Positions 29,671-44,685 of a DNA stretch of 64,000 nucleotides are shown piece after piece. How positions within the stretch are numbered: position 1 is the first letter of the stretch; each line of letters opens with the position of its first letter. The notes below the pieces were generated by a model. That model was not told the origin of the DNA and did not search any database. It was given only the letters and a program-made list of their open reading frames with translations. Source of the stretch: a virus; the IMG/VR virus record IMGVR_UViG_3300044769_000080; one strand, 5' to 3'. Made by a program: the position numbers and the translations under genes.

Positions 29671-29852
29671 GCGGCTGTAACTTTACCGCCAGTTTGGCTG
29701 TAGAGACTTCCCATGAAGTTAGCTAGGTTCATCATTACCCTGTCTCGCCTATGGGACCAAAGAACGGTCCTCCCGGCTTCGAAAGGGTAATTCCGTTGGG
29801 AGTGCTTTGGTGGCTGGGACTGGCACTGCAAAAAACCCCTACTCTTATAGAG

Positions 29853-29975
29853 TACTGAAATATTTCAGTAATTGGTTGCAGTAGAAAATTGCAGTAAATA
29901 AGTCCTTTAGATTCATGGGGTTGGCGGGTTACTGAAAATGCACTGCAACTGCAATTTACTGAATTTTTCATGAAA
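29853..29975. promoter_or_regulatory. AT-rich operator array in the divergent region: 18 bp perfect palindrome TACTGAAATATTTCAGTA, repeated TGCAGTA / TACTGAA half-sites, 10 bp palindrome TTTCATGAAA
   Basis: Seen directly: palindrome at 29853-29870. TGCAGTAgaaaatTGCAGTA at about 29877-29897. TTACTGAAAATGCACTGCAACTGCAATTTACTGAA at about 29929-29963. TTTCATGAAA at 29966-29975. Confidence 0.45.
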
Positions 29976-30389
29976 TGTGAGTCTGGAGCACTCAACCTTT
30001 GGTCCCTGGCGGCTGTCTGGTGGCGGGACTTTAGTCTCATTCCCGCATGCTGAGGCTAAAGCATGCTTTTTCTCAGGTACCCGTCCTGCGGGGGGGACTT
30101 TTAACCCCTACCCCCCATTGCCAAAATCGACAAGGTTTTGAATTTTCCCTAGGAACAACCGCGAGGCTACCCTCCCCGCCTAAAAAATGACACCCCCCGT
30201 CAGAGAATTGACCCCGAACTGGCGCACACTCGGCCCAAGGTTGTCAAGGCTTGACACGCTAAGTCGTTGTGTGGTAGGCACTTAGCGCCTAGCACGTCTC
30301 AGGCCCAGCGTCAACGCCAATCTATTGACGCTCGCAGGGCGTCAAGCGGGACCATAGGCGGGAATTGTAAGTCGTTGATTCTAAAGGAC

Positions 30390-30419
30390 TTGACCCTATG
30401 GCCGGGGTTGTGCTACCAT
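30390..30419 (+). promoter_or_regulatory. candidate early promoter on plus strand (TTGACC-18-TACCAT); a second weaker candidate is TTGACA-18-TAGGCA at 30251-30280
   Basis: Sequence acTTGACCctatggccggggttgtgcTACCATg. 10-mer TAAGTCGTTG repeated at about 30260 and 30367. Confidence 0.3.
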
Positions 30420-30508
30420 GTTTGCGGGCCGAAGTCTACCCGACACGGCCCAGCCCGCCGCATGATGTCCAATACAGGGCACAATGCAAGGGCAAAGGAC
30501 GGTATCAG

Positions 30509-30907
30509 ATGGGACAAGTCAAAATCGGTGACAAGGTGTTCAAGGATCAACCATCCGCGATGGAGTGGATGAACCAAGAGATGACGCGACTCGCAGAGGC
30601 TAACAAGGCGCTTGAAGCCAAAGCGGCCAATGGCGGCACGGTTGCCAGCGAGCGGTCATTTTCGGTGACGGAAGCGACCTACTCGGCCGGTGACAAGGCG
30701 AAAGCCAAGTCATTCCTTCAGGGCAAGCCGAAAGGGAACTTGAAGATCACCGGCCCGGGACTCGACTACGGCGTCGAAGTCTCTCCGCTCGGCATCAGGA
30801 CGATCTTGGAGCACAAGGATGAGATCATGACCTTCGTGACCGAGAACGAAGCGAAGCTTGCCGCGAACGCGGCAACGGTCAAGGAACTCAAAGCCAAGAA
30901 TCGCTAG
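30509..30907 (+). CDS. hypothetical early protein (132 aa; internal ATG with RBS preferred over ORF-track start 30398)
   Basis: AGGA 8-10 nt upstream of ATG 30509. In frame with the ORF-track entry. Confidence 0.45.
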   Translation: MGQVKIGDKVFKDQPSAMEWMNQEMTRLAEANKALEAKAANGGTVASERSFSVTEATYSAGDKAKAKSFLQGKPKGNLKITGPGLDYGVEVSPLGIRTILEHKDEIMTFVTENEAKLAANAATVKELKAKNR

Positions 30908-31177
30908 ACAGGTGCACGTTGGGAGTGCAGCAGGCGTGGCTTGTTGCACTCACAAGGTCCACGGTCAACAGCAGGGACAAGGCAAACCGCGAATCGAGTT
31001 CGGGCAAGGGCTCGCGGCAGGATGGCCCGGCAAGGCCCCTAGCCGCCCCCAGGACGCGAAAACGGCAGGCACGACGCGGGTTAGGCCACAACGGTTCGCC
31101 GAACGCAGGCAGGGCAGCCAATCGAGACTTTCGCCACGAAAAGCGAAACCGGCCGCCAGACAGAGCATCAAGAGCAC

Positions 31178-31375
31178 TTGGAGCGTAGACAGATGGTAGA
31201 CAAGCCAGCACAGACCGACAGAGCACAGCCTATGTGCTCGTATTGCGACCGTCCAGCTTATGCATGGGACGCATTGAGCGGGACTAACCACTATGGCTGC
31301 GTCCAGCACGAGTCAATGCTTGCGATCCCTGTGCTGATGTCGGTAATGGTTGCGCGTCCGAAACGCATTCGGTGA
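31178..31375 (+). CDS. small Cys-rich protein (65 aa)
   Basis: ORF track. CSYCDRPAY...GCVQHE zinc-ribbon-like. Confidence 0.35.
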   Translation: MERRQMVDKPAQTDRAQPMCSYCDRPAYAWDALSGTNHYGCVQHESMLAIPVLMSVMVARPKRIR

Positions 31376-31456
31376 TGGACGCTCTGACTCGTGCAATACG
31401 GTAACATGGGCCTTTAGTATGCTGAGAACCACCGGGAGTCACTAACGGTGGTTTGA

Positions 31457-31678
31457 TTGGACACTATGAAACAAACGATGAAAGAGCAGTGGGTTAAGCT
31501 GGCAGTCTCCACTAAGCTGCCCTGTCCTGTGGGACATGGTTGGACGTGGATGACTGTCGAAGGCGAGCCATCTGCTGACGGTTGCTGGATGGAACATTCA
31601 CACGCTGTCAGCATTGCTGAGCAGATTGAAGCCATTCGGCCTGATGTCAAGACTGAGATTTATCCGATCTTCGGATAG
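31457..31678 (+). CDS. hypothetical protein (73 aa)
   Basis: ORF track. Confidence 0.4.
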   Translation: MDTMKQTMKEQWVKLAVSTKLPCPVGHGWTWMTVEGEPSADGCWMEHSHAVSIAEQIEAIRPDVKTEIYPIFG

Positions 31679-31689
31679 GAGCTGAGACG

Positions 31690-31878
31690 ATGGAAGGAAC
31701 AACACCAGTGCAACAGCAACAATACACTATCCTGATCACATCCAACGGGGCTGAGGCTCGATTCACCTACCGTCGGCCTGTGGATGCGAGCATTAAAATG
31801 CATTCACTGATGCAGGTTTTCGGTGTGTTTGATTACACCTACGACGTTCTGAGCAGAACGTATCTGATTGAGTGGTAG
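31690..31878 (+). CDS. hypothetical protein (62 aa)
   Basis: ORF track. Confidence 0.4.
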   Translation: MEGTTPVQQQQYTILITSNGAEARFTYRRPVDASIKMHSLMQVFGVFDYTYDVLSRTYLIEW

Positions 31879-31888
31879 GAGGACTGAG

Positions 31889-32149
31889 ATGGCTGATATT
31901 AAAAACTGTGGAGAAGCTGTGAAATACTTCATGCTTCACATTTTCCTGCACGATGATGAATGTGCTGTGTATCTGAGCAAGTTTACAGGTGCACAGATAC
32001 GCTTCACGTTCCACAACTACGGTGGTGACATTGACTGGGGAACGGTGTTCAAATGCATCCGGTTCTTTGAGCCGGAAAACGTCATCATCAGCCCTCGAGC
32101 GCAAGCTGCTGATGGAATGACTGACGCTCAGGAGGTTAGCTGTGGTTAG
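31889..32149 (+). CDS. hypothetical protein (86 aa)
   Basis: AGGAGG RBS then ATG at 31889. In frame with ORF-track entry 31868. Confidence 0.45.
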   Translation: MADIKNCGEAVKYFMLHIFLHDDECAVYLSKFTGAQIRFTFHNYGGDIDWGTVFKCIRFFEPENVIISPRAQAADGMTDAQEVSCG

Positions 32150-32303
32150 TAGCATCATTTACATTACAGTCAAGGCAGTCATCAAAGCTGATGACGAGCG
32201 ACAAGCGAAGGAGCGGATTGACGCCTTGCGCGAGTGTATCGAGGGCTCTTGCAAGGTGCTTCCGTTCGTTGGTCACGTTTCATTGATAGAACAAGAAAGG
32301 TAA
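32142..32303 (+). CDS. small protein (53 aa), GTG start, not in ORF track
   Basis: CAGGAGGttagctGTG. Translation MVSSIIYITVKAVIKADDERQAKERIDALRECIEGSCKVLPFVGHVSLIEQER. Confidence 0.4.
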   Translation: MVSSIIYITVKAVIKADDERQAKERIDALRECIEGSCKVLPFVGHVSLIEQER

Positions 32304-32313
32304 CGGCCCTGTA

Positions 32314-32493
32314 ATGACTGCCAAACGCCGTCGGCCAACAGACATTAGTGATCTTGAATCACTTACGTTCCACCTGACGTGGTGGAATGTATTTGATTGC
32401 CTTGTACAACGGTATGTGCTTGGCTATATCACGATTCAGGATTACATGGCGGCACGGCTGCTGTTTCACAATCATTTCAACAAGGAAGACTGA
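32314..32493 (+). CDS. small protein (59 aa), not in ORF track
   Basis: Translation MTAKRRRPTDISDLESLTFHLTWWNVFDCLVQRYVLGYITIQDYMAARLLFHNHFNKED. Fills the gap between neighbours. Confidence 0.35.
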   Translation: MTAKRRRPTDISDLESLTFHLTWWNVFDCLVQRYVLGYITIQDYMAARLLFHNHFNKED

Positions 32494-32495
32494 AA

Positions 32496-32633
32496 ATGCA
32501 CAACTATCGAATCACCTTGACTGATGACAACGGCGATCCATTGAGTGCCGCACGCGGGATCATGGTTGGGCTGATTATGGGTATGTTCTGCCTTGCCGTG
32601 ATCAGTGCAGTTGCTTACGTGCTTGTGCACTAG
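32496..32633 (+). CDS. small membrane protein (45 aa)
   Basis: GGAAG RBS. Translation MHNYRITLTDDNGDPLSAARGIMVGLIMGMFCLAVISAVAYVLVH. In frame with ORF-track entry 32397. Confidence 0.4.
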   Translation: MHNYRITLTDDNGDPLSAARGIMVGLIMGMFCLAVISAVAYVLVH

Positions 32634-32645
32634 GGAGGACAACGA

Positions 32646-32951
32646 ATGGCCGCAAGACTATATAGCCTGTTTCGCAAGGACGGTAGGAACTGGGTTCGTG
32701 AGCAAGGTGCTGGTGCGTATCAGCGGAGCACAGCTGTTCGCATCTTTCAGTCTCGCCTGATTGATTCAGCGTTCAGCCCAGCACCGCTCAGCCTCCGTCC
32801 AGTCAAGTCTCAGACCCCGACTGCATTGGAAGCGTCCGAGCTACTGTGCAAACGCTGCGAAGCACACTTGCACAATGCGTGTTTGGGCGGAACGTGTGCA
32901 TGTATCTGTCGCCGGTTCAAGACAGTGGACAAGGGAGGAAATGATGCGTAA
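32646..32951 (+). CDS. hypothetical protein (101 aa), C-terminal Cys cluster
   Basis: ORF track. Confidence 0.4.
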   Translation: MAARLYSLFRKDGRNWVREQGAGAYQRSTAVRIFQSRLIDSAFSPAPLSLRPVKSQTPTALEASELLCKRCEAHLHNACLGGTCACICRRFKTVDKGGNDA

Positions 32952-33162
32952 GCGTCCATCAGGACTCAAGTCACTGCCTAAGAGCAGCAACGGCACGCAC
33001 CGAATCGCTGGCAGTTTTGGGATACTGAAATACCAGCGGGAGGAGATCCGTCGCCGTGCTTGGTCAAAAGGCTGGACCGTGAGCCGATACGTGAATCACC
33101 TGCTCTGGTCTGATTGGCTGCAAGAGCAGGATCGTCGGGTGACTCGTAAGCGGATAAAGTGA
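32941..33162 (+). CDS. hypothetical basic protein (73 aa)
   Basis: GGGAGG RBS before ATGATG at 32941. In frame with ORF-track entry 32761. Confidence 0.4.
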   Translation: MMRKRPSGLKSLPKSSNGTHRIAGSFGILKYQREEIRRRAWSKGWTVSRYVNHLLWSDWLQEQDRRVTRKRIK

Positions 33163-33374
33163 GGCCGTTTGTGTTTATTGTAAAGTTCAAGCAAGACGGC
33201 AAACTCATGCAGCTATGGACGCATGAGCCCATCGCTTGCGAGCTTGGGACCGTCAAGATTGGAGATGTTGTTTACGTCCCAGATCCGCCTGAGGATGATT
33301 ACAAGGGACTGGTTATCGATACGGTGCATGCAACGCTGCTGCCATTGCTGAATGCGAGGAATTTCGAACCATGA
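33159..33374 (+). CDS. hypothetical protein (71 aa)
   Basis: ORF track. ATGA overlap. Confidence 0.4.
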   Translation: MRPFVFIVKFKQDGKLMQLWTHEPIACELGTVKIGDVVYVPDPPEDDYKGLVIDTVHATLLPLLNARNFEP

Positions 33375-33598
33375 AACAGCTCACACGCACAGCCGTCCTC
33401 GACATTGCTGGTGGGTTACGTATCGCGGCTGCTCAGATGGGACGCGAAGCAAAATCAGCTAGGGATCTTGGCTTCGTTGACTTGGCTGCGGCCTGCACAT
33501 CGAAAGCTGCGAAATACAGCACACTGGCGGAACTGATTGGCAGAAGTCTGACGGGCAACCCTCAGGCTACCCGTCAGCGTCAGGTCAGTAAACCTTAG
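33371..33598 (+). CDS. hypothetical protein (75 aa)
   Basis: ORF track. ATGA overlap. Confidence 0.4.
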   Translation: MKQLTRTAVLDIAGGLRIAAAQMGREAKSARDLGFVDLAAACTSKAAKYSTLAELIGRSLTGNPQATRQRQVSKP

Positions 33599-33667
33599 GC
33601 TTACTTTTCAGGATCACTAATGCTGCCACGACTAGCAGGAAAACCACTAAGGGATCTGGCATGGGCC

Positions 33668-34369
33668 TTAGCCAGCGGTGCCGGTCCTCGGGATCTCTTC
33701 CTCTGTCGTGGTGGTCAGTGTCGGAACGACAAGTCTGAGTGCGCCAAGCGCATGAACCCCTCTGGGCTCACGCAGCGTGACCAGTGGCTCGATGTTCCGA
33801 GCTTCGTTCTCGATCCTGCTGACCGTGCGATCCGGCCAGTGCAGCTGGATCTTGAGTGCGTCGAACAACGACCGTGCCTGATCGGGAGGGATGAATCCCA
33901 TGATGGTTTTCATAGCCCTCGCCATCGCGACGGTTGGAGAGACGGGCGCATTCGCTATTCTGTGCGACCGTTCTACGGGCGTTTCGGCTGTGGCTGTTCC
34001 TGCTTGTTTACCTGCCACCCGGCGGAGATACTCAGCGGCCTGATACGCAGGGTGGTCACGGTAACCCAGAGACTGAGGCTTGGATCGGCTCTGCTCTGGC
34101 AGGTCAGGAATGAACAAGCGAACGAACGTGGCAAACGTCCCTCCACCTGTTTCCTGTTGCCATGCAGCAAAAGCCGTCATAAATTTGGGCGCAAGCTCCG
34201 CCCGAGATTCAGATACGATCTTGAACTCATCCACGTAAGACGTGAACGCACGTCTGAGGTTGTTCACGGTTTTCCGAAGCTTCGCAGACAGAGCGGCCAT
34301 CACAGACGGTTCAGCCGCTGCTCTGATCTTGCGCGCTGTTTTCTTTGCCATACTACACACTCCACTCAT
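33668..34369 (-). CDS. reverse-oriented gene in the early block: candidate regulator (about 230 aa), GC-rich
   Basis: The only minus-strand gene between 30.4 and 57 kb. Divergent from the plus gene at 34628, with two palindromic operators between. About 60% GC. The plus-strand 424 aa ORF across it is its antisense artefact. Confidence 0.5.
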   Translation of the reverse strand: MSGVCSMAKKTARKIRAAAEPSVMAALSAKLRKTVNNLRRAFTSYVDEFKIVSESRAELAPKFMTAFAAWQQETGGGTFATFVRLFIPDLPEQSRSKPQSLGYRDHPAYQAAEYLRRVAGKQAGTATAETPVERSHRIANAPVSPTVAMARAMKTIMGFIPPDQARSLFDALKIQLHWPDRTVSRIENEARNIEPLVTLREPRGVHALGALRLVVPTLTTTTEEEIPRTGTAG

Positions 34370-34558
34370 GCCGGGCAAAATGCACGGCTAGCCGGGAACC
34401 TGCAACCCGCGTGCCAAACCGCTAAATCGTTGCGGGTCAACGAGTTGCACGGCAGAGCGGCAATGGGCTACATGAGTTTCGGGATGCGCCGATGCCACCT
34501 CTTACGCCTCTGTTACACACCGAAGCTCTACATTCAACTGTATTGTTTCCATACACAG

Positions 34559-34607
34559 CAGTGTAATTCTTACACTGTCACTGTATTGGATCGTGTAATT
34601 ATTACAC
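34559..34607. promoter_or_regulatory. two palindromic operators GTGTAA-N3-TTACAC (O1 CAGTGTAATTCTTACACTG 34559-34577; O2 GTGTAATTATTACAC 34593-34607), centres about 32 bp apart
   Basis: Perfect inverted repeats read directly. Located between the divergent gene pair 33668-34369 (-) and 34628-34894 (+). Confidence 0.55.
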
Positions 34608-34627
34608 TGTTCTCAGTGGAAACAGCC

Positions 34628-34894
34628 ATGGAAACAGCCATTCAGATGATTGAGCAGGCGAAGAAAAAGCGAAACCCACTCATGAAACAGCCGGGCTTCT
34701 ATGGCTGGGTCGGCGGTAATATTACAGCCACTTACGCGCATAAGAACGCGGCAAACGCGCGATATTCGAATGAGAACCCCTGGGGGTTGGGTCGATTTGA
34801 CAAACCGGCTGGCCCGGGCGTAGGCTTGTCGCGACCCGAGTTGTGGCCAGTCGGCCAAAAACGGCCTGCAAGTGCTCTTATACAAGTTGATTGA
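34628..34894 (+). CDS. hypothetical protein (88 aa) starting within a 12 bp tandem duplication GGAAACAGCCAT x2
   Basis: ATG immediately after operator O2. Tandem 12-mer at 34618-34641 gives METAMETA. Contains an internal TTGACAAACC-18-TAGGCT promoter-like element at 34796-34825. Confidence 0.4.
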   Translation: METAIQMIEQAKKKRNPLMKQPGFYGWVGGNITATYAHKNAANARYSNENPWGLGRFDKPAGPGVGLSRPELWPVGQKRPASALIQVD

Positions 34895-35352
34895 GGATTC
34901 AGGTGCTGAAACAAATTATCTCAGGTGGACAGTATGGAGCTGACCAAGGAGGCTCTGAAGCTGCCATCACACTTGGCCTTGAGCCGGGAGGATTCATTCC
35001 GAAGAATTATCTGACTGAGCGTGGTGCTTTGTCACTGGACTTTGTGCGGCGTTGGAAGCTTACTGAGCACAATGCAACTGGTTATCCTCCGAGGACCGCT
35101 GCTAATGTCCGTTGGGGACATGGAACAGTGATCTTCGGTGACGTTACCAGTGCTGGCTCGAAGCTTACGCTTCGTCTGTGCAAGGAAGAAGGCAAACCGT
35201 GTCTTACGAATCCAACATCTGATCAGCTAAAGAGGTGGGTGGAGGAGAATAAGATCGAGATACTGAATGTCGCTGGTAATCGTGAGAGCAAAGCTCCCGG
35301 TATTTACCAGCAAGTGCATGATACCATCGTCGCAGCCTTCGGAGGCAAGTAA
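34891..35352 (+). CDS. Rossmann-like nucleotide-binding protein, LOG/SLOG/DprA-like (153 aa)
   Basis: N-terminal ISGGQYGADQGGSEAA and later NVAGNRES resemble GGxxGxD motifs of the SLOG/LOG superfamily. Low certainty. Confidence 0.35.
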   Translation: MRIQVLKQIISGGQYGADQGGSEAAITLGLEPGGFIPKNYLTERGALSLDFVRRWKLTEHNATGYPPRTAANVRWGHGTVIFGDVTSAGSKLTLRLCKEEGKPCLTNPTSDQLKRWVEENKIEILNVAGNRESKAPGIYQQVHDTIVAAFGGK

Positions 35353-36077
35353 TGGGTGTTTTCTACGATCAGACCAGCAAAGACGAGCTTGAGATTCGCC
35401 GTCAGCCATCTGAATACGTCTCCTCATTACCGACCATGATGCAGTGGACACTGTGGCTCGCATTCACTCGCCCTGAGCACGCAGCTGTCCTCACACATAG
35501 TCAATTCTCGTTAGTGCTCTACACCTGTATCGCATGCGGTGCTCAGTTCAACGAGTATCCGAATGCTGACCACACAGCCATGTCGAAGCAAGCGCCGAAG
35601 CGGGTTCACAAGATCCGTGTCGGTGCGAAGGTTCGGAAGGAAAAGATCGACCACTACCTTCGCATGAGTGACAGCATGAAAGTAACTGAGAAAGAACAGA
35701 TTCCCGTCACCGTGACAAAGCAAGGGCTTGGCTGCCCTGATTGTGTTGCTCTCTACGCTGAGAAAGAATCTGAGGCAGCTGGAGTGAACATCACTCGCGA
35801 ACAGATCAACACCATACAGGCTCATATGGCACAGCTGAAAGGCTGTGCTAACAGCGGCTGCGGGAAGCCTTACAACGAATGCAAGTGCAAGAAGTTCAAG
35901 CCTCATACGTTCCGAGCAATGGGGCTGGTGCAGCCTTACTTAACCGTGCTTGAAACACCTGAATGCAAGGTCTGCAAGGATACGCTGCATCGATGGGACG
36001 CAACGAAATGGAACACTGAGCGTAAGGCTCTAGGCGCCTATGTTCGGTGTCGGTGCTCGCCTGAGAGATTGAGTTGA
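35352..36077 (+). CDS. multi-Cys (zinc-finger-like) protein (241 aa)
   Basis: CIACG, CPDC, CANSGCGKPYNECKCKK, CKVCKD, CRCSPE clusters. Confidence 0.4.
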   Translation: MGVFYDQTSKDELEIRRQPSEYVSSLPTMMQWTLWLAFTRPEHAAVLTHSQFSLVLYTCIACGAQFNEYPNADHTAMSKQAPKRVHKIRVGAKVRKEKIDHYLRMSDSMKVTEKEQIPVTVTKQGLGCPDCVALYAEKESEAAGVNITREQINTIQAHMAQLKGCANSGCGKPYNECKCKKFKPHTFRAMGLVQPYLTVLETPECKVCKDTLHRWDATKWNTERKALGAYVRCRCSPERLS

Positions 36078-36138
36078 CCACCACATCCGAACCTCCTAAG
36101 CTGCACGAGATGTGTGAGGGCTAAGGGGGACGTAGGGT

Positions 36139-36348
36139 GTGGTGGTCTGTGACCGAGTGAACGGAGGCCCAATGAGACTGAGAGCGGATCGTCTTGAGAT
36201 GAGGCGAAGTGAAGCTGCTCAGCGTAATGCTGAGTGGCGGAAGCTGTCGCCAAAAGAAAAACTAGATGCCCTCGACACGAGATTAGGTGTCGGTAAGGGT
36301 GCAACGAGACAGCGGAAGCTGCTTGGAAAAGCCGAGGCGAAGTCATGA
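36139..36348 (+). CDS. hypothetical basic protein (69 aa)
   Basis: ORF track. Confidence 0.35.
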   Translation: MVVCDRVNGGPMRLRADRLEMRRSEAAQRNAEWRKLSPKEKLDALDTRLGVGKGATRQRKLLGKAEAKS

Positions 36349-37296: not shown

Positions 37297-37333
37297 CGGC
37301 TCGCCAGCAAGTTCCCTCGGACGGGGAGCGGAG

Positions 37334-37488: not shown

Positions 37489-37902
37489 ATGGGAAGTTTT
37501 GATGGCTTAGGCCCCAGTCTGAACAGAAAGTATGGTGATGTGATGAGGCGGTTCAAGGAAAACAAGCTCTATCATCGTGAGATTGAGAAGCTCGAACGAA
37601 GTTTGGTCTTGTCTGCGATGACATTGCACAGAGGCAACGTCAAGGCAGCTGCTCAATACCTTGGCATTGCACGCACATCGTTGTTTGAGAAAGTCATCAA
37701 ATTCGGAATCGCGAAGCAGAACAAGCAGCATGATGTTGTCGAACCTCCCAAGAAACATCAATACATTGTGAGGTTCATCAACAAACACGGCAGGCTGACT
37801 AATGGCTACACGAACCTCGATGATGTCAGCTACGATGATGTGTGTGTTTGGCTCGCTGAGGGCATCGCATTCATCGAGCAGCTTGACGAGAGGTCGAAAT
37901 GA
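37489..37902 (+). CDS. Fis/NtrC-type HTH DNA-binding regulator (137 aa; true start may be internal ATG at about 37543)
   Basis: ERSLVLSAMTLHRGNVKAAAQYLGIARTSLFEKVIKFGI matches the Fis-family C-terminal HTH (E..LI..AL...GN...AA..LGI.R.TL..K.KK.GI). Confidence 0.5.
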   Translation: MGSFDGLGPSLNRKYGDVMRRFKENKLYHREIEKLERSLVLSAMTLHRGNVKAAAQYLGIARTSLFEKVIKFGIAKQNKQHDVVEPPKKHQYIVRFINKHGRLTNGYTNLDDVSYDDVCVWLAEGIAFIEQLDERSK

Positions 37903-38000
37903 TTGAGTTCATTGCAGCTGCCATCGTTGTTGTCGCTGTTGCTGTTTTCTTAACGTTCATCATTGCTGTGGCTGTGGAGGCCCTAGGGGAATACTTGTGA
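37899..38000 (+). CDS. tiny membrane peptide (33 aa), not in ORF track
   Basis: ATGA overlap. Translation MIEFIAAAIVVVAVAVFLTFIIAVAVEALGEYL. Confidence 0.25.
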   Translation: MIEFIAAAIVVVAVAVFLTFIIAVAVEALGEYL

Positions 38001-38170
38001 AAACCGTTATCACTGCACGATCGAGGGGAGTCGTAGTCACGCGGACGCTGTATGGTGACATGTCGCAGGCACGTTTCGAGGCCGAGATGCTTGATATTAA
38101 GCATCGTGCGAAGCAGCTTGACATTGATGGGATGAAGGTGAGAAGCCCACGGATGCCGGGGGAGGAGTAG
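37997..38170 (+). CDS. small protein (57 aa), GTG start, not in ORF track
   Basis: GTGA overlap with previous. Fills the gap to gene 38174. Confidence 0.25.
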   Translation: MKTVITARSRGVVVTRTLYGDMSQARFEAEMLDIKHRAKQLDIDGMKVRSPRMPGEE

Positions 38171-38173
38171 CTT

Positions 38174-38641
38174 ATGAACGTTTCGCCCGCTCTCGTGACC
38201 CAGATGGAAGCCCTGATCGAGCAGTGGCGAGACAAGGCCGATCTATTACACCCACTGTTGTCAGCGACATACTTGCGCGACTGCGCCGATCAATTACAGC
38301 CCCTCCTGGTCCTCCTCCTTGAGCAGCAGCGAGGCCAGCGAACGATTAAATCCATCGCGACGATGCTTGGATGGGACAACGTGCCGCCACAGCGGACGCT
38401 GGAGATGGACATCAGTACCCTAAAGGCTCGCGTGGTCGATTCGCAGGCCGAGGTCCAGCGGCTCAAAGCAATCAACAGTGAACTATGTTCGGAGCATAAC
38501 GGGTTACTGGCAGACGGTGCCAGATGGCAACGACGCGCTGAAGCTGCCGAGGCCGAGATCCAGCGGCTCACGGACGCCCTGGACGCGGAAAACGATATCA
38601 TTGTTTGCACTGACCGAACAACTCAACCTGCTGAGGGATGA
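38174..38641 (+). CDS. coiled-coil protein (155 aa)
   Basis: ORF track. Heptad-like L/E/A/Q-rich sequence. Confidence 0.4.
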   Translation: MNVSPALVTQMEALIEQWRDKADLLHPLLSATYLRDCADQLQPLLVLLLEQQRGQRTIKSIATMLGWDNVPPQRTLEMDISTLKARVVDSQAEVQRLKAINSELCSEHNGLLADGARWQRRAEAAEAEIQRLTDALDAENDIIVCTDRTTQPAEG

Positions 38642-38647
38642 CAAGTG

Positions 38648-38824
38648 ATGGAATACATCCTCGTTGATATTCGAACAAAACGTCTTCTATCAGCTGGTTG
38701 TCAGAACTTCGGCAGCAAGCTTGACCAGTACCTGTTCGAGCAGCTGCAAGAGTCCGTTGGCCGAGAGGTTCATTGGGACAAGCTGCCAGACGAACTTCGT
38801 GAGCCTGAGGGAGAGCCCAAATGA
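38648..38824 (+). CDS. small protein (58 aa), not in ORF track
   Basis: Translation MEYILVDIRTKRLLSAGCQNFGSKLDQYLFEQLQESVGREVHWDKLPDELREPEGEPK. Confidence 0.3.
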   Translation: MEYILVDIRTKRLLSAGCQNFGSKLDQYLFEQLQESVGREVHWDKLPDELREPEGEPK

Positions 38825-38988
38825 GCCCAACAGTCATTACTGTCATGGTGATTAGTGCGTTTTTCCTCGGCTACATCTCACGGTGGTTGCAAGACACCGA
38901 CACCGCTGCGCCGCTCAGTGAGGATTACGTATCCGCCGATTGCCTCAATTGGCTGCTCAGACAGGAACAACGAAAGGGAATGCTATGA
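38821..38988 (+). CDS. small membrane protein (55 aa), not in ORF track
   Basis: ATGA overlap. Translation MSPTVITVMVISAFFLGYISRW... Confidence 0.3.
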   Translation: MSPTVITVMVISAFFLGYISRWLQDTDTAAPLSEDYVSADCLNWLLRQEQRKGML

Positions 38989-39173
38989 TCCTACCGCTTG
39001 GAATTTTTATTGCCCTTGTTTGGTTCCTTGTTTGGCTGGTGGTTGGATATGCCGAGGACGAAAAATGGATGTTTCCTGTGATGCTGTTTGGAACGATTGC
39101 CATTGGTATCGCAACTGCCCTCATTCACCATAATTGGCCGGTAGCGCAGACACTTGCGGAGGCGGTGAAGTGA
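38985..39173 (+). CDS. small two-TM membrane protein (about 63 aa)
   Basis: Translation MILPLGIFIALVWFLVWLVVGYAEDEKWMFPVMLFGTIAIGIATALIHHNWP. In frame with ORF-track entry 38940. Confidence 0.35.
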   Translation: MILPLGIFIALVWFLVWLVVGYAEDEKWMFPVMLFGTIAIGIATALIHHNWPVAQTLAEAVK

Positions 39174-39637
39174 AAGAAGTCAAGGGCGACCTCTGGACCT
39201 ACGCCCCTGCTGAGTCAGTTGTTCGCTGCATCACAACGAATGGCTTCGTCAAGAAATCAGGTGAGGCTGTGATGGGTGCAGGATGTGCGAAGGAAGCCAC
39301 TCAACAATGGCCTGTTATTGCTCACGACGTTGGCCTGAGGATCACAAATTTTGGCAACAAGGTTCAAGACCTCGGTGAGTATTTCGATGAGAACGATAGG
39401 CCAGTTAATTTGGCAATGTTCCCAGTCAAGCACAACTGGTGGGAAAAAGCTGACCTCGCACTGATTGAGCAGAGCTGTAAAGAGCTTCTTGCTCTCGCTG
39501 CGATGTATCCTCACAGCACTGTGTTTGTCATCCCGAGGCCGGGTTGTGGAAACGGGAAGCTTCGATGGGAGGACGTCAGGCCAGTGTTGTTGAAATATTT
39601 CGATGCAGACGACAGATTCCACGTCATTACGTGGTAA
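39134..39637 (+). CDS. macro domain (ADP-ribose binding/processing) protein (about 155-167 aa)
   Basis: GDLW...VVRCITTNGFVKKSGEAVMGAGCAKEA and VFVIPRPGCGNG correspond to the macro-domain N.AN...GGGV..AI and P.I(S/G)TG..G motifs. Confidence 0.55.
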   Translation: MAGSADTCGGGEVKEVKGDLWTYAPAESVVRCITTNGFVKKSGEAVMGAGCAKEATQQWPVIAHDVGLRITNFGNKVQDLGEYFDENDRPVNLAMFPVKHNWWEKADLALIEQSCKELLALAAMYPHSTVFVIPRPGCGNGKLRWEDVRPVLLKYFDADDRFHVITW

Positions 39638-39663
39638 CACGAAGCGCGGCGAACGGCTGAGTT

Positions 39664-39681
39664 GGCGGTAAAATTACCGCC
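39664..39681 (+). repeat. copy of 18 bp hairpin repeat GGCGGTAAAATTACCGCC
   Basis: Perfect 7 bp stem with 4 nt A/T loop. 27 nt after the macro gene stop, 56 nt before the dsbA start. Confidence 0.5.
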
Positions 39682-39736
39682 GCCCCAGCAACGGTCAAAA
39701 GGTCCCAAACGAAAGTCCATCAGAGGAGCGTGATAA

Positions 39737-40402
39737 GTGATTGAGAAAACGTTGAACATCATCACTGCTGTTGCGTTGATCATTGCATCCAGCATCATCA
39801 GCTGGAAATTCATCTATCCACAACAGGCTGCCGGGGTTCAGCAGCCGCCTCCAGCAGTAGAACAGATCGACCAGAAAATCGAGGTGGATGCCCAACAACA
39901 CACGTTCGGAACCGGCCGAATAGCTGTGATTGAATTCACAGACTACGAGTGTCCATATTGCAAGCTGTTCGCTCAGAGTGAACTGTCCGTCCTCAAGCGG
40001 GACTTCAGCAATAGGATCAGCTTTTACTCGTACAACTTTCCATTGTCGATCCATGCTCAAGCTGAGGGCGCTGCTAGGGCCGCTGTTTGTGCATCATGGC
40101 AGAAGAAACTTGGTGACATGCACGACAAGCTGTTTTCGTCACCGCTCAGCCAAGATGTATACAGCACCTATGCAGTCCAGATTGGCTTGGACACAAAGCA
40201 GTTTTCAAGCTGCATGACCACAGATCTTTCACAGACTGCAATCAACAACCACAAGAAAATTGGTGATTTCCTTAGGGTGCAGGGAACACCATCGTTCTTT
40301 GTTGGGACCATTGCCGGGGACGGGAGGACCGTGCAACTGAAGTCTCGTGTTGCAGATCGTTCCAAGCTGGTGTCAGAAATCCAAAGATTGGCAGCAATCT
40401 AA
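39737..40402 (+). CDS. dsbA: DsbA-like thiol:disulfide oxidoreductase with N-terminal membrane anchor (221 aa)
   Basis: Active-site CPYC, cis-Pro loop VQGTPSFFVG, thioredoxin-fold layout. N-terminal TM helix IITAVALIIASSIISW. Confidence 0.65.
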   Translation: MIEKTLNIITAVALIIASSIISWKFIYPQQAAGVQQPPPAVEQIDQKIEVDAQQHTFGTGRIAVIEFTDYECPYCKLFAQSELSVLKRDFSNRISFYSYNFPLSIHAQAEGAARAAVCASWQKKLGDMHDKLFSSPLSQDVYSTYAVQIGLDTKQFSSCMTTDLSQTAINNHKKIGDFLRVQGTPSFFVGTIAGDGRTVQLKSRVADRSKLVSEIQRLAAI

Positions 40403-40432
40403 GCTGCCAGTGTAAGGGCCAATAACGGCCGG

Positions 40433-40723
40433 GTGAAAGAGAGAATGCTTGTGAAGAAATCAATCATGCGATTGTTGGCAGCTGTAGTGTTCGTGGCTGC
40501 AACATTCGTCTACCAGTCCGAACAGCAGCCGCTGCAAGCACAGTGGCCGAGCTGCCAGAATGCGTGGATGGACTGCCAGCAGAGGCTGGGCTGTCTGGTC
40601 ACGGCTGGGGATAATCAGTGTTATCAGGGTCATTTGATCGTGCAAGTGGCCTGCACCGTCTGCGGGTACCAATGGTGGGTGCTCAGTTCCGGTGGCTGTG
40701 ACTACGGCTGGTGTCCGTCCTAG
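40433..40723 (+). CDS. secreted Cys-rich small protein (96 aa; 10 Cys)
   Basis: Signal peptide MKERMLVKKSIMRLLAAVVFVAATFVYQ. Cys spacing CQNAWMDCQQRLGC...CYQGH...CTVCGYQWW...GGCDYGWC. Confidence 0.45.
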   Translation: MKERMLVKKSIMRLLAAVVFVAATFVYQSEQQPLQAQWPSCQNAWMDCQQRLGCLVTAGDNQCYQGHLIVQVACTVCGYQWWVLSSGGCDYGWCPS

Positions 40724-40780
40724 ATCCACAAAACTGAGGGTGTGGGGACTTCGGTCCCCCACCTCTCAAAGGAAACAACC

Positions 40781-41272
40781 ATGAAGAGATTTTCGATATT
40801 GCTGTTGGTCTGTGCTGCGGCATGCGCGCCATCTCCGGTTGCACCGACGCCTCAGCCAGTTCCATCGTTCCCATCACAGCTGCGAGCTGAGGCATCATGT
40901 GAACAACCAACCAATGTGTGGGTTGGACAGACACAAGGCAGGACTGATATTACATGGGATGGCGCCGGTGACAAGTTTCTCGTGTGGTTCGAAGTGGAGG
41001 ACCACAATGTTTACGTTTCCGTTCCGGGCAGCCCTGCAACGGCTGATGGCAATCGTTACGAGACGCGCAGCCTCGACAGCGCTCGAACCCATGCCGTGCA
41101 AGTGCAGTCAGTGTGTGGAGATTCGTACAGTCCTCGCAGCGCCTCGGTCGTTTTCGGAGGAAGCAGCGGCCCGATTGTGCCAGCGCCTCAGCCACCTGTG
41201 AACCCTTGTGTCACACTAAAAACAACTGGTCAACGCTGCACTGGAGGCGGTTGTGGCAACGAATGCCCCTAG
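40781..41272 (+). CDS. lipoprotein (about 163 aa) with C-terminal Cys-rich tail
   Basis: AAGGAAA RBS. MKRFSILLLVCAAACAPSP lipobox-type signal. C-terminus CVTLKTTGQRCTGGGCGNECP. Confidence 0.45.
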   Translation: MKRFSILLLVCAAACAPSPVAPTPQPVPSFPSQLRAEASCEQPTNVWVGQTQGRTDITWDGAGDKFLVWFEVEDHNVYVSVPGSPATADGNRYETRSLDSARTHAVQVQSVCGDSYSPRSASVVFGGSSGPIVPAPQPPVNPCVTLKTTGQRCTGGGCGNECP

Positions 41273-41493
41273 CAAGCAACGACGATACAACGAGGAACGA
41301 AAGCTGGAAGGAAAATGTTTGCGATGCCGCAGGCCCTCCCGTCCTGACAGAGTAACATGCGAGGGTTGTTGGGTGAAACAGAAACAATACGTTGTCAGCC
41401 GTGCAGCGTAAGTGTCTTCGGGAAGCCTCTACGGAGGCTTGTCGTAGCTACTTAGCTGGCTAGATTTACCTTAACAAAACAATCAAATTTTCA

Positions 41494-41511
41494 GGCGGTA
41501 TTTTTACCGCC
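41494..41511 (+). repeat. copy of hairpin repeat GGCGGTATTTTTACCGCC
   Basis: Intergenic, about 117 nt upstream of gene 41628. Confidence 0.5.
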
Positions 41512-41627
41512 AGTGCGAGGTGCATCTAATGCGCGTCGTGGCTCTACTCGTTTGCCTGCTTGCAGCTGGCTGCGAGGACATATGAGAGAGTAGTTGAGAC
41601 AACTGGCAGCTGCCAGTAGGAGGTCAA

Positions 41628-41819
41628 ATGGGTCGAATCCGAGACATACACATTGTTGCAACCATCGACGGGCCTGATGGTCCGATCTTGGTGGATTGCG
41701 CCGCTCGCGAACGAGACATCGAGGCTGAGGTGCTTGTTTATCTGAGGGAGAAGGCAAATGGGATTACGACGGATGCTATCCTGGATGAGTTTGAGCGTAG
41801 TGATGCTCTTGGCGGCTAG
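41628..41819 (+). CDS. hypothetical protein (63 aa)
   Basis: ORF track. AGGAGG RBS. Confidence 0.4.
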   Translation: MGRIRDIHIVATIDGPDGPILVDCAARERDIEAEVLVYLREKANGITTDAILDEFERSDALGG

Positions 41820-41961
41820 TTGCGAAAAGTCCGATGAGACACGTCATACCGCAAAACGGTGTGAGGAGCTTGGTGGGCTTGTCATCTGGGACAACGACTA
41901 TCCACAACGGGTTCTTAGCTGCATCATTCCATGTAACTATCCTCAGGCGGAACACAAATGA
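41758..41961 (+). CDS. small lipoprotein (about 59-67 aa)
   Basis: MSLSVVMLLAASCEK lipobox (LAASC). Confidence 0.35.
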   Translation: MGLRRMLSWMSLSVVMLLAASCEKSDETRHTAKRCEELGGLVIWDNDYPQRVLSCIIPCNYPQAEHK

Positions 41962-42085
41962 CTCCACAGCATGATGTATATTCGAGTTTTGCAACATTGG
42001 TTTTCTTCGTCGGTTTGTTGGTTGCGATTGCTGCGTTCTCCATCATAGTAACACAAGCTATCCGGGTGCTGCTGGAAGGATAAGC

Positions 42086-42298
42086 ATGAACGAACCACTC
42101 CCCAACGACCCGACATTGGCTGATATCATCAACGTGTTTCAGCGCCGAATCGCAGAACTTGAGGAGTCGCTCGCGACGAGAGGGCGGGCCATCATGATGT
42201 TCTCTCGGATGAACATTGACCAGCGGAAACGAATTGACCAGCTCGAACACGAGGTGCAGTGTCTGAAATCGGCTGCATCATCTGGCTATAAGACGTAA
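42086..42298 (+). CDS. hypothetical coiled-coil protein (70 aa)
   Basis: ORF track. Confidence 0.4.
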   Translation: MNEPLPNDPTLADIINVFQRRIAELEESLATRGRAIMMFSRMNIDQRKRIDQLEHEVQCLKSAASSGYKT

Positions 42299-42310
42299 AG
42301 GAGGAGCAGC

Positions 42311-42499
42311 ATGCCACTTCATCGTCATCAATGCGGTGATGCTGACAAGTTCAAGTACAAAAGCTTTGATCCCTCGAAGGGCTGCGGTCACGTTTTCGAG
42401 CATGATGACTCGTTCTTCGGTAAGGATGAGGAACACATGTGCCCTGAGTGTGGCCGAGGACCGTGGGTTATCAAGTATCCTGAGGAGATGAAGCCGTGA
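42311..42499 (+). CDS. zinc-ribbon protein (62 aa)
   Basis: HQCGD...GCGHVFEH...CPECG. Confidence 0.4.
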   Translation: MPLHRHQCGDADKFKYKSFDPSKGCGHVFEHDDSFFGKDEEHMCPECGRGPWVIKYPEEMKP

Positions 42500-42855
42500 A
42501 CCTCGACGACATTGAAATCCCGACCTTCGAGATCGACCTGACACCTCAGCCTGAGCCAACCCGCGAGTCGCGCGCTGCCCTAACCGGCAAGGAAAGGGTT
42601 GTGACCATCGTCGAAGCTACCCGTGCCGTAGCCGCAACTGATAGGGTTCGGGCACGTCTGAAGCCAGAGCTGATTGATCACTGGAAGAAAACCGGCACGA
42701 TGGATGAATATACCTATGGCAGTTATCGCATTTGTCATTCAAAGCTGACCGGCAAGTGGTGGGTGATGACTGAGGATGGTGTCTTCATGGGCTACGCTGA
42801 TGACTACATCGGAGGTCGAATGATGATTGATCAGGCAATAGCAAGGGACAAATGA
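42496..42855 (+). CDS. hypothetical protein (119 aa)
   Basis: ORF track. ATGA overlap. Confidence 0.4.
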   Translation: MNLDDIEIPTFEIDLTPQPEPTRESRAALTGKERVVTIVEATRAVAATDRVRARLKPELIDHWKKTGTMDEYTYGSYRICHSKLTGKWWVMTEDGVFMGYADDYIGGRMMIDQAIARDK

Positions 42856-43022
42856 ACATCAACGTTGCCATGATCCTCTCAACCGTGATGGTGCTTCAAT
42901 GCTTGGTTGTGATGGCATGGGCAGCACTGCACGGCACGTTCCTCAGCTTCGCTGCTGGGCTTACTGATTTCAGTCTATCGTTCTACATCGTAGGGATACT
43001 ACTCCCTGCCAAGGAGGAATAA
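42852..43022 (+). CDS. small membrane protein (56 aa), not in ORF track
   Basis: ATGA overlap. Translation MNINVAMILSTVMVLQCLVVMAWAALHGTFLSFAAGLTDFSLSFYIVGILLPAKEE. Confidence 0.3.
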   Translation: MNINVAMILSTVMVLQCLVVMAWAALHGTFLSFAAGLTDFSLSFYIVGILLPAKEE

Positions 43023-43024
43023 GC

Positions 43025-44359
43025 ATGTCACTGATTCTCGTTGGGATCGCAGCTGCGGCTGTTGTCCTCTCAGTCGGACTCGTCCTCGCCTTTGCATGGC
43101 GTGTGGTGGTGCCGACAAACATTGTTCACATTGTGCAGTCCAGCAAGAAAACCACAAGCTATGGTGCTGGAAGCGCGTCTGGGAACACATACTACAACAT
43201 TCCATCGTTCGTTCCGGTGTTTGGTGTCAATCGCATCACGCTGCCGATCAACAACTTCTCAATCCCGCTGCACGCCTACGAGGCGTATGACAAGGACCGA
43301 GCCCCGTTCGAGCTTGACCTGATTGGGTTTTTTGTCGTGACTGACACCAACCTCGCGGCATCCAGGTGTGCAAGCTTCGACGAGCTGAAAGGCCAGTTGA
43401 TGTCAATCATGCAGGGTGCGGCACGAACCATCCTCGCACGGCATGATATCAATGAAATCATGGGCGACCGTGCAACGTTTGGCAAGGCGTTTACTGACGA
43501 GGTTGACCACGGCCTCACAGCATGGGGCGTGCAGACTGTCAAGTCGTTGGAACTGATGGACATTCGGGATGCCAAGGCCAGCAAAATCATTGCTGACATT
43601 ATGGCGAAGAAATCCTCGAAAATCTCGATGGAATCCCGCACAACCGTGGCCGAGAACGGCCGCCTCGCACAGCTGGCAGAGATTGAAGCGAATCAGGCTG
43701 TTGAGGTTCGCAAGCAAGAACAGATACAGCAGGTTGGACAGCGCAAGGCTGAACAGGAACGGGAGGTTGGTATCGCGAACGAGCGCTCCAAACAGCAGGT
43801 GCAGGCCGAGGCGAAGACCACCAAGGAACGTGAGATGGCCGTTGCTCAGGTGCAAGCTGTGAAGCAGGCTGAGATTAACAAGGAAGCTGCGATTATCAGT
43901 GCTGAACAGCAGCGCCAGACACAAGTCATCTCGGCTCAAGCACAACGTGCAGTTCAGGTCACCGAGGCTGAAGGCGAACGCGATGCCCTCACACTCAAGG
44001 CCGCTGGCGTCAGGGCTGAAGGTGAGGCCAAGGGTGCAGCCAAGCTCGCCGTTGATATGGTTCCCATCACAACGCAGGTTGCGCTGGCGAAGGAAATCGG
44101 TGAGAACAAGGAATACCAGCATTACCTTGTCACGGTTGAGCAGATCAAGGCGAACAAGGAAGTTGGTGTTGCGAACGCTGCTGCCCTCGACAAGGCCGAA
44201 GTCAGGGTGATTGTGAACTCTGGCAACGTGCAGAGCGGCATTTCGACTGTGACTGACCTCATCAGCTCCAAGGGTGGAACAGCGATTGCTGGCTTGCTTG
44301 AGGGGCTGGCTGGTACCGAAGCCGGGGAAAGCTTGGTAAAGAAACTGACCGGCAAGTGA
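43025..44359 (+). CDS. SPFH/band-7 (flotillin/YqiK-like) membrane protein (444 aa)
   Basis: N-terminal TM helix, SPFH-type domain, then a long E/A/Q/K-rich coiled coil with flotillin-like EA repeats. The 374 aa minus-strand ORF across it is antisense artefact. Confidence 0.6.
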   Translation: MSLILVGIAAAAVVLSVGLVLAFAWRVVVPTNIVHIVQSSKKTTSYGAGSASGNTYYNIPSFVPVFGVNRITLPINNFSIPLHAYEAYDKDRAPFELDLIGFFVVTDTNLAASRCASFDELKGQLMSIMQGAARTILARHDINEIMGDRATFGKAFTDEVDHGLTAWGVQTVKSLELMDIRDAKASKIIADIMAKKSSKISMESRTTVAENGRLAQLAEIEANQAVEVRKQEQIQQVGQRKAEQEREVGIANERSKQQVQAEAKTTKEREMAVAQVQAVKQAEINKEAAIISAEQQRQTQVISAQAQRAVQVTEAEGERDALTLKAAGVRAEGEAKGAAKLAVDMVPITTQVALAKEIGENKEYQHYLVTVEQIKANKEVGVANAAALDKAEVRVIVNSGNVQSGISTVTDLISSKGGTAIAGLLEGLAGTEAGESLVKKLTGK

Positions 44360-44535
44360 TCGGTCGATAAGCCCCGATACCTTGCGGTGTGTGTCGGTAA
44401 CGGTTGGTAAGGTTAACCGCGAGGACGAAGAGTCCCTGCAACCCGAGAGGGTTGCGGCCTTCTTGCGAAGGCTGTTCTTGACAAACAGCAACCGCAGGCA
44501 GACCGGAATCCTCTCACACAGTAACAATTAAATTC

Positions 44536-44611
44536 GCATCCGTAGCTCAATTGGCAGAGCAGCGGGCTTTTAACTCGTGGGCTGGAGGTTCGACTCCTCC
44601 CGGATGCACCA
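44536..44611 (+). tRNA. tRNA-Lys (anticodon UUU)
   Basis: GCATCCGTAGCTCAATTGGCAGAGCAGCGGGCTTTTAACTCGTGGGCTGGAGGTTCGACTCCTCCCGGATGCACCA. Perfect 7 bp acceptor, D-arm with GG, anticodon loop CTTTTAA, T-arm GGAGG/TTCGACT/CCTCC, encoded CCA. Confidence 0.8.
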
Positions 44612-44632
44612 TTTGGATCAGCCGTGGGAAGT

Positions 44633-44685
44633 GGCGGTAAATGTCCGCCTGTTTCTATCTGGCGTGTGGCGGTAATTTTACCGCC
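44633..44685 (+). repeat. two copies of the hairpin repeat (GGCGGTAAATGTCCGCC partial; GGCGGTAATTTTACCGCC perfect) right after tRNA-Lys
   Basis: Seen in sequence. A fifth imperfect copy GGCTGTAACTTTACCGCC lies at 29673-29690. Confidence 0.5.

Follow-up and report, generated by a model that had tools for sequence, protein, structure and literature searches.

The DNA in IMG/VR record IMGVR_UViG_3300044769_000080 is that of an uncultured phage, and the 64,000-nt stretch analysed (the window) is nearly the entire 64-kb contig of this novel phage. It carries repeated copies of an 18-bp palindrome, GGCGGTAWWWWTACCGCC (GGCGGTA-WWWW-TACCGCC), of which three are perfect and are referred to below as copies A, B and C. 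The genes up to ∼30 kb are on the minus strand and include those for the large terminase, the major head protein, an SU10-type adaptor and the tail, and early or accessory genes occupy the plus strand beyond this point, among them genes for NAMPT, PNKP, an RNA ligase, a CCA-adding-like enzyme, a peptide deformylase and a phiEco32-type COOH.NH2 ligase. A few genes are shared with phiEco32-like phages, the head protein is no more than 28% identical to those of known phages, and a megablast search against cultured phages found no close relative. The phage appears to be lytic. A scan of ∼50 of the window proteins identified none as a DNA polymerase, helicase or primase, and for this reason the contig is probably not a complete genome.

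Only ∼6-8 true non-coding gaps are found on the plus-strand side, and copies A, B and C are intergenic according to independent gene calls on identical contigs. All three are associated with an envelope-directed gene cluster at 39737-45165. Copy A (39664-39681, loop AAAT) is located between a phosphatase-like gene, whose stop codon is 27 nt away, and a plus-strand gene (39737-40402) whose GTG start is 55 nt downstream. The latter encodes a DsbA-like protein of thioredoxin fold that has a CPYC motif and is membrane-anchored at the N-terminus, and is followed in the cluster by genes for a Cys-rich secreted protein (40433-40723) and a lipoprotein (40781-41272). Copy B (41494-41511, loop TTTT) is 5 nt before the ribosome binding site (RBS) GAGG (41517) and 17 nt before the ATG (41529) of a further plus-strand lipoprotein ORF (41529-41585; MRVVALLVCLLAAGC...; lipobox LLAAGC), of which a 213-nt deletion has left 18 codons in the window and which is intact (101 aa) in the related strains L136 and L141. 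Beyond an SPFH/flotillin gene (43025-44359), a member of a very large phage family with >1000 homologues, copy C (44668-44685, loop ATTT) lies 93 nt before a plus-strand gene (44779-45165) for a protein of 128 aa that carries a Sec signal peptide (MKKLVIGLALAMLAISATPSFA/Q). The products encoded downstream of the three perfect copies are all exported or membrane-anchored. An earlier note on this DNA had placed each copy in a gap 50-120 nt upstream of a plus-strand gene, which is correct for A and C but not for B, nor for an imperfect copy at 29673-29690 that is situated between two minus-strand features.

Copies of the palindrome and their frequency

The coordinates reported previously for the three perfect copies are exact, and the imperfect copy at 29673-29690 and a partial copy at 44633-44649 are also present as described. 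Three copies had been overlooked, namely 34712-34729 and 6764-6781, which have one mismatch each and are within genes, and 56226-56243, which has two mismatches and is doubtful. The perfect motif has no occurrence in 100 dinucleotide-preserving shuffles of the window, and 7 window sites carry two or fewer mismatches where 0.10 would be expected. When only the symmetric positions 4 and 15 are relaxed (GGCNGTANNNNTACNGCC, GGCNGTA-N4-TACNGCC), the window contains six exact matches, consisting of the three perfect copies and those at 29673, 34712 and 6764, and the 56226 copy departs from this relaxed core at one more position. Isolated half-sites are not enriched (7 observed, 5.3 expected), and an unbiased screen of the window revealed no other repeated palindrome family. 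The 18-mer family is non-random, and the earlier description of it as a phage-specific element of regulatory type agrees with counts far above chance.

The copy at 29673-29690 (GGCTGTAACTTTACCGCC, GGCTGTA-ACTT-TACCGCC) has T at position 4, is 2 nt from the −35 element of a minus-strand promoter and is followed by a further half-site, GGCTGTA, at 29696-29702. The 34712-34729 copy (GGCGGTA-ATAT-TACAGCC) has A at position 15 and is within the 3′ part of a 424-aa gene (33620-34894), and the 6764-6781 copy (GGCGGTA-AAAT-TACTGCC) is within a minus-strand gene for a 654-aa tail protein (6440-8404), where it encodes GSNFTA. The remaining copy, at 56226-56243 (GGCGGTAAATTTCCTGCC), is within an HNH endonuclease gene and may be a chance match. 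As the motif reads as RNY codons in frame, the intragenic copies were assessed with a codon-preserving shuffle within genes, which gave an expectation of 0.004 matches against the two observed. A motif scattered equally and at random through coding regions, which had been named as the outcome that would speak against a regulatory element, is not what was found; the two intragenic copies are far above chance, and one of them (34712, compared with relative L350) has been kept across a change of reading frame.

The 424-aa gene also contains, at its 3′-end, two GTGTAA-N3-TTACAC palindromes and a tandem GGAAACAGCC repeat (34559-34577, 34593-34607 and 34618-34639), which are ∼75-150 nt upstream of the 34712 copy. 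The second palindrome and the repeat are kept in L350, and the segment 34559-34639 is densely set with possible sites within coding sequence.

Copies A, B and C resemble intrinsic terminators in having a GC-rich stem and a short loop but differ in having no T-run, and this identification was rejected for all three. Their 3′ tails are GCCCCAGC, AGTGCGAG and CAACACCA, respectively, and a terminator scan of both strands found no T-run after any of them and did not flag the copies. The statement in the earlier note that the copies are not classic terminators, being without a T-run, is therefore upheld for A, B and C on both strands but not for the partial copy at 44633-44649. This plus-strand sequence (GGCGGTAAATGTCCGCC), 21 nt past a tRNA-Lys gene, retains the left half-site, has a 5-bp stem and a 7-nt loop and is followed by the T-rich run TGTTTCT. 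It alone has the feature expected of a terminator, and from its sequence it looks like an ordinary one; its counterpart in relative L341 is GGCGGACAATTACCGCC followed by TGTTTCC.

Conservation of stem sequence rather than base pairing

Copies B and C are unchanged in strains that are 97-98% identical to the window (L135, L136 and L141), with B identical in L136 and L141. The orthologue of copy A in L136, located in an 83%-identical segment, is GGCTGTAATTTTACCGCC, which has an uncompensated G-to-T change at position 4 and another loop. L341, in which the SPFH protein is 79% identical, has a perfect orthologue of copy C, followed downstream by a homologue of the 44779-45165 product. All 14 stem positions of this copy are identical to those of copy C, whereas the 60-nt flanks are 43% identical (P ∼1e-5), and within the 18 bp only the loop differs. 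L350 is ∼90% identical to the window over the 34712 region and retains that intragenic copy at 17 of 18 positions, including the A15 variant, between flanks that are 51% identical (P ∼1e-4). The reading frame across the L350 copy is altered by a deletion of 10 nt immediately before it and an insertion of 13 nt immediately after it, and the retention of the copy despite this change indicates that the element is maintained as nucleic acid, independent of coding. Copy 6764 (GSNFTA) aligns gap-free to GESYTA and GAVYQS of homologous proteins and is therefore not an insertion.

The motif is not present in relatives at 50-64% SPFH identity (L129, L130, L140, L345 and L351), and these have no repeated palindrome of their own. 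It is likewise absent from L342 (SPFH 63%), which has its own palindrome family. Elsewhere in IMG/VR, 95 stretches include the motif, nearly all as single copies and none related to the window phage, and matches in a bacterial genome collection are scattered, with no motif-dominated genome among the matches listed. A literature search for the half-site returned primer sequences only. The 18-mer is a lineage-specific cis-element under selection for sequence.

Ten copies, taken from the window and from its relatives, were aligned. All have the 7-4-7 geometry, and 11 of the 18 columns are invariant. The central 4 nt are A or T in 38 of 40 cases (P ∼1e-10) and otherwise free (AAAT, TTTT, ATTT, ACTT, ATAT, AAAA and AGAT), and only the 18 bp are common, with no motif shared by the flanks. 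Five of the seven proposed base pairs never vary, and no compensatory change is seen across the ten copies. Variation falls mostly on pair 4-15, in mid-stem, which is G-C in four copies, G-U in two and unpaired in four; all three single-mismatch copies from the unbiased search, as well as the L136 orthologue, vary at this pair, where the mid-stem position makes a mismatch most damaging. The covariation score (0.025) is below the shuffle mean (0.042), in a test that has little power since most pairs are invariant, except at pair 4-15, which fails it. The half-site GGCTGTA recurs in either arm, on the left in 29673 and in the L136 orthologue and on the right, as the reverse complement, in 34712, as recognition of independent half-sites predicts, and the A15 variant is common to the window and L350. 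The 18-mer is symmetric, and selection on it acts on the nucleic acid and preserves sequence, not pairing. The uncompensated mid-stem variation, together with the free A/T centre, favours a symmetric duplex site over a selected RNA hairpin.

An RNA hairpin in polycistronic early transcripts would nevertheless be a possible explanation for A, B and C, which are on the coding-strand side of transcribed gaps, 27 nt past a stop codon in the case of A and 5 nt before the RBS in the case of B. Such a hairpin could be a barrier to 3′-exonucleases, a 5′ stabiliser, a weak factor-dependent attenuator or the target of a sequence-specific RNA-binding protein, and would set the relative expression of the downstream genes for exported proteins. 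Phages are well known to have intercistronic hairpins with roles of this kind (PMC8948821). For the perfect copies the folding energy is −12.4 to −14 kcal/mol (z −3.5 to −4.9), the stem is 100% kept in L341, and the adjoining 44633 sequence resembles a genuine terminator that uses the same GGCGG/CCGCC stem. However, variants at 4/15 fold to only −6.6 to −7.9 kcal/mol and are kept in relatives at about half the stability, the best fold of 29673 is not the motif hairpin, and copy 6764 has an A-C mismatch in its own mRNA. The loops consist of A and U only, unlike the GNRA- or UNCG-type loops (GAGA and TACG, for example) of the other intergenic hairpins of this genome, and no T-run follows the copies. 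Searches of Rfam at gathering and permissive thresholds found tRNAs alone near or above threshold, with no match to the motif, and a purely structural role does not require an identical stem sequence in unlinked copies. A hairpin acting as RNA is consequently a possibility of some weight but rather unlikely. The more specific proposal of an antiterminator or pause hairpin, made in the earlier note, fares no better, given a free loop, the lack of compensatory change and mid-stem variants that break the pairing and are kept with roughly half the folding energy lost.

Several other structures were considered and rejected. Substrates of RNase III need approximately two helical turns (∼20 bp), and the stem here is only 7 bp, has sharp boundaries and does not extend into the flanks, so that the RNase III site suggested previously is not supported. 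In lambda-type nut sites the boxB hairpin has a conserved loop that is recognised by the N protein and an adjacent boxA; here the loop is variable and no common flank motif is present. A solitary mimic of a CRISPR repeat (an anti-CRISPR RNA) would have flanking handles, of which there are none, and no Rfam family including CRISPR-DR was matched at E ≤5. A cruciform target for endonuclease VII was set aside as 7-bp arms are short for extrusion, and nothing was found in its support.

The earlier note had also offered a small mobile palindromic repeat, and a miniature palindrome of the repetitive extragenic palindrome (REP) type, perhaps of host origin and dispersed by a RAYT-type transposase, with the imperfect copies as decaying insertions, would resemble REP/BIME and SMAG elements in being a short GC-rich palindrome in intergenic operon gaps. 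Two unrelated bacterial genomes do have the core in REP-like contexts. In a metagenome-assembled genome (L300), two core copies (2811-2828 and 3355-3372), each within GGGGAGGGGCGGTATATTTACCGCCC, flank a 145-aa IS200/RAYT-like ORF, and in a Kamptonema genome (L228, L266, L282 and L283) the core lies inside a longer palindrome that is itself repeated, cgtaacgccgcc...ggcggcgttacg. REP/SMAG-type palindromes carry a terminal GTAG (or GTGG) tetranucleotide (PMC2613905), and neither this nor a conserved flank is found at the six copies. A tblastn search with a RAYT-like ORF found nothing in the window (only the window was searched, not the host), and there are only 6-7 copies and no motif-dominated genome among the matches listed. 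Moreover, orthologous positions are held in relatives between flanks that are 43-51% identical, copy 6764 is gap-free relative to homologous proteins and shows no insertion signature, and invariant stems with free loops are the opposite of neutral decay. A mobile origin is accordingly most improbable.

A putative operator and its candidate regulator

Conservation of the 18-mer for sequence rather than for hairpin pairing is the basis for reading it as an operator, recognised as double-stranded DNA by a dimeric DNA-binding protein. Judged from sequence comparison, this interpretation is the most plausible one but about evenly poised between right and wrong; that the target is DNA rather than RNA, which protein binds it and in which direction it regulates are all inferred. 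Among the options in the earlier note, whose interpretation as a whole is partly supported, the activator site, as a site for protein binding, fits best. Two inverted 7-bp half-sites, GGC[G/T/A]GTA, would be bound by a dimer around a 4-bp A/T spacer that is probably uncontacted but required if the DNA is to bend or its minor groove to narrow. High affinity would be expected of the perfect sites and lower affinity of the variants at positions 4/15. The bound protein would control how strongly, or when, transcription proceeds in a small regulon made up of three exported-protein units (DsbA-like, lipoprotein and signal-peptide protein), the endonuclease VII promoter and a conserved internal promoter at ∼34.8 kb.

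The binding protein would most likely be phage-encoded, and the candidate is a 137-aa helix-turn-helix (HTH) protein of the Fis family (HTH_8; plus strand, 37489-37902; Pfam 31.8 bits, cutoff 22), the only recognisable DNA-binding candidate in the window. Its gene is 1.8 kb upstream of the perfect-copy cluster. Residues 23-74 align with residues 46-97 of Fis (helices B-D), and the equivalent of R85 is kept. HTH_8 proteins of the Fis/NtrC type bind as dimers to inverted half-sites that flank an A/T-rich centre, which bends or narrows, and the window likewise encodes an HTH_8 protein. However, the E. coli Fis core is 15 bp, of odd symmetry and highly degenerate, whereas the motif is 18 bp, of even symmetry and has 12 near-invariant positions, and the phage protein, unlike Fis, has an extra C-terminal half of ∼60 aa and is itself without known relatives.

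Copy 29673 is directly upstream of a perfect sigma70-type promoter, TTGACA-18-TATAAT (minus strand, 29641-29670), that precedes the endonuclease VII gene (29283-29630). This is one of three strong minus-strand sigma70-type promoters, the others being at 28769-28798 and 21191-21220. In all three the −35 is extended (TTGACAAWCC) and the spacer has an unusual length of 18 nt, and one of them precedes the major head gene region. The sole exact plus-strand match to the extended −35 is part of a promoter-like sequence, TTGACAAACC...TAGGCT (34797-34826, 18-nt spacer), which is 67 nt downstream of copy 34712, within the same gene, and is included in an island of 40 nt that L350 has in nearly identical form. 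The 34 kb of plus-strand genes yielded no strong intergenic sigma70 promoter, and no convincing one overlaps A, B or C or is near B. Copy B follows a stem-loop at 41423-41440 and copy C follows the T-run-bearing stem-loop at 44633-44649, which suggests that both may sit where new transcription units begin.

The scarcity of intergenic plus-strand sigma70 promoters would also be expected if the 18-mer were itself a promoter, or an element of one, for a phage-specific sigma factor or RNA polymerase, with the central TAWWWWTA as a −10-like sequence. The centre does resemble an A/T-rich −10 (TAAAAT in copy A), the copies are just upstream of genes, and phiEco32-like phages, with which a few genes are shared, encode their own sigma factor (PMC8948821). 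A promoter is not expected to have full two-fold symmetry, however, and the loop of A is oriented opposite to those of B and C though all precede plus-strand genes, so that loop asymmetry has no consistent orientation relative to the downstream genes. Copies are also found within genes on both strands, and no phage sigma factor or RNA polymerase was detected among the proteins scanned. This possibility can be given very little credence.

Several observations weigh against the operator reading or against the HTH_8 protein as its binder. The invariant pairs are uninformative on pairing, and the perfect copies A, B and C, in intergenic gaps that are transcribed, are stable hairpins such as an RNA element would form, and would fold if transcribed. 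There is no recognisable promoter near copy A, L341 has not kept the promoter-like site near C, and the distances from site to −35 are heterogeneous, at 2 nt (29673), 43 nt (C) and 67 nt (34712). The 18-bp even geometry is not that of the 15-bp E. coli Fis core. The HTH_8 protein is an orphan, with no homologues found in searches, and for this reason its link to the motif is inference only. The fragmentary assemblies that yielded L341 and L350 contain 79%-identical homologues of two other window proteins, but no HTH_8 homologue was found in them, which is a weak argument against this candidate.

Dispersed palindromic operators of global regulators are represented by the KorB O_B sites of plasmid RK2 and by the multiple C1 operators of phage P1. 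The 18-mer is like these in that one short sequence is reused at unlinked control points of a replicon, perfect and weaker variants are found together, and some sites are away from promoters. It differs in that the sequence and the 7-4-7 geometry are unrelated, the phage appears lytic and no ParB/KorB- or C1-like protein was found among the scanned window proteins. For a ParB/parS system, similarly, no ParB-family or partition gene is among these proteins.

An analogy for the operator reading is provided by L342, which has a perfect 7-4-7 palindrome of its own, ACACATA-N4-TATGTGT, in two copies (3585-3602 and 11786-11803; ∼0.03 expected), also found in L343 and L344. One copy fills the 18-bp spacer of TGGACA-18-TATAGT, the best plus-strand sigma70-like promoter of the L342 locus, after a canonical terminator. 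The other is directly before TGCTATACT, which is extended −10-like. When screened uniformly, families of the 7-4-7 type were found in the window and L342 only.

Mosaic junctions and neighbouring repeats

Breaks in identity between strains that are otherwise 90-98% identical are found within ∼15-160 nt of four copies (A, B, the 44633/C pair and 34712). Identity to L136 falls from ≥93% to 50-66% starting at copy A, where a divergent DsbA allele begins (the L136 counterpart is 41% identical), and the 213-nt indel is 64 nt after B. An indel that includes the tRNA-Lys(UUU) gene (44536-44611) ends 15 nt before the 44633/C pair; the gene is cleanly absent from the 98%-identical L135, in which 16 nt replace ∼104 nt, and is also missing from L341 and L140. 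In the comparison with L350, a cpYpsA gene is present or absent just past copy 34712 and the promoter-like island. As junctions and copies both favour intergenic DNA, proximity may be indirect, and it is possibly an incidental, secondary property of the copies.

Promoter-early stem-loops (PeSLs) of T4-type phages are found in hyperplastic regions, next to indels between close relatives (PMC2839356, PMC4122927), and repeated stem-loops next to indels in an accessory region of this kind are what the window also has. By this comparison the 18-mer would be a junction module, a short regulatory repeat giving homology for the exchange, gain and loss of accessory cassettes, which is compatible with a function as operator or hairpin. 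On the minus strand, copy 29673 is a stem-loop joined to the consensus sigma70 promoter TTGACA-18-TATAAT, as in the PeSL layout (PMC4122927). PeSLs, however, are composite terminator-promoter units with a promoter in every copy, and here the composite is present only at 29673; no promoter-plus-stem-loop unit is found at A or B, and the other two strong promoters (28798 and 21220) have no adjoining copy. Sequence-invariant stems are a further difference, two copies are within conserved genes, the phage is not T4-like, and the 18 bp that are common would be very short for homologous exchange. A primary role in cassette exchange is therefore very unlikely.

The operator and the junctions could be combined if the Fis-like protein were to bind the 18-mer and coordinate the envelope-directed cassettes, with the same sites serving as junctions for their exchange. 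This would amount to a PeSL-like system based on a protein operator, not on a promoter-terminator unit, in podoviruses of a lineage unrelated to T4, and lineages such as that of L342 would have switched to another 7-4-7 palindrome. So extended a scheme is unlikely to be correct in full. The 18-mer is a fairly ordinary kind of control element and not a new kind of biology. If it is an operator, then the phage has a compact, testable regulon consisting of one 18-bp site, ∼6 targets and one candidate orphan regulator, in an uncultured group where most early genes are without annotation. The sites would provide a handle on co-regulated accessory genes, here those for exported or envelope-directed proteins, and would show that regulatory sites persist through cassette turnover and even through a change of reading frame within a gene. 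The practical value is modest, as an operator/regulator pair for synthetic control or as a marker for the phage lineage.

Further conserved or repeated sequences were noted in the same regions. A possible upstream mini-ORF (44722-44757, MKLSSFASQIE*) is located between copy C and the secreted-protein gene and corresponds to MKLSANL* in L341, the first four codons differing synonymously (TTG/CTG and AGC/AGT); going by its sequence, it may be a leader peptide or a coincidence. After the SPFH gene, a 26-nt island, CCCTGCAACCCGAGAGGGTTGCGGCC (44434-44459), predicts a hairpin with a GAGA loop and is 100% kept in L341 (3455-3480) and L140 (∼903-928), where the gaps are otherwise unalignable and SPFH identity is 57-79%. 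An exact 22-nt probe from this island had no match in IMG/VR. At the other end of the window, a long minus-strand ORF (1-1988), which is at least 698 aa on the identical contig L131, is missing from the ORF lists of the window because it runs off the window start.

The segment 29800-29990 has a low GC content (∼40%) and dense short direct and inverted repeats (TACTGAAAT/ATTTCAGTA, two copies of TTGCAGTA and two of ACTGCAA). It overlaps a doubtful 101-aa minus-strand ORF (29735-30040) between two gene modules and, rather than a gene, appears to be a region of iteron/origin or regulatory type. The unit TTGAC...GTCAA underlies a second group of palindromes, represented by TTGTCAAGGCTTGACA, TTGACGC-N7-GCGTCAA and TTGACGAGTCAA at 30242-30256, 30325-30345 and 57536-57575. 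These are in a divergent control region and in a 167-nt gap before two low-GC3 genes (57663-58255), and TAAGTCGTTG occurs at both 30260 and 30368. The TTGAC...GTCAA palindromes may be sites for another regulator.

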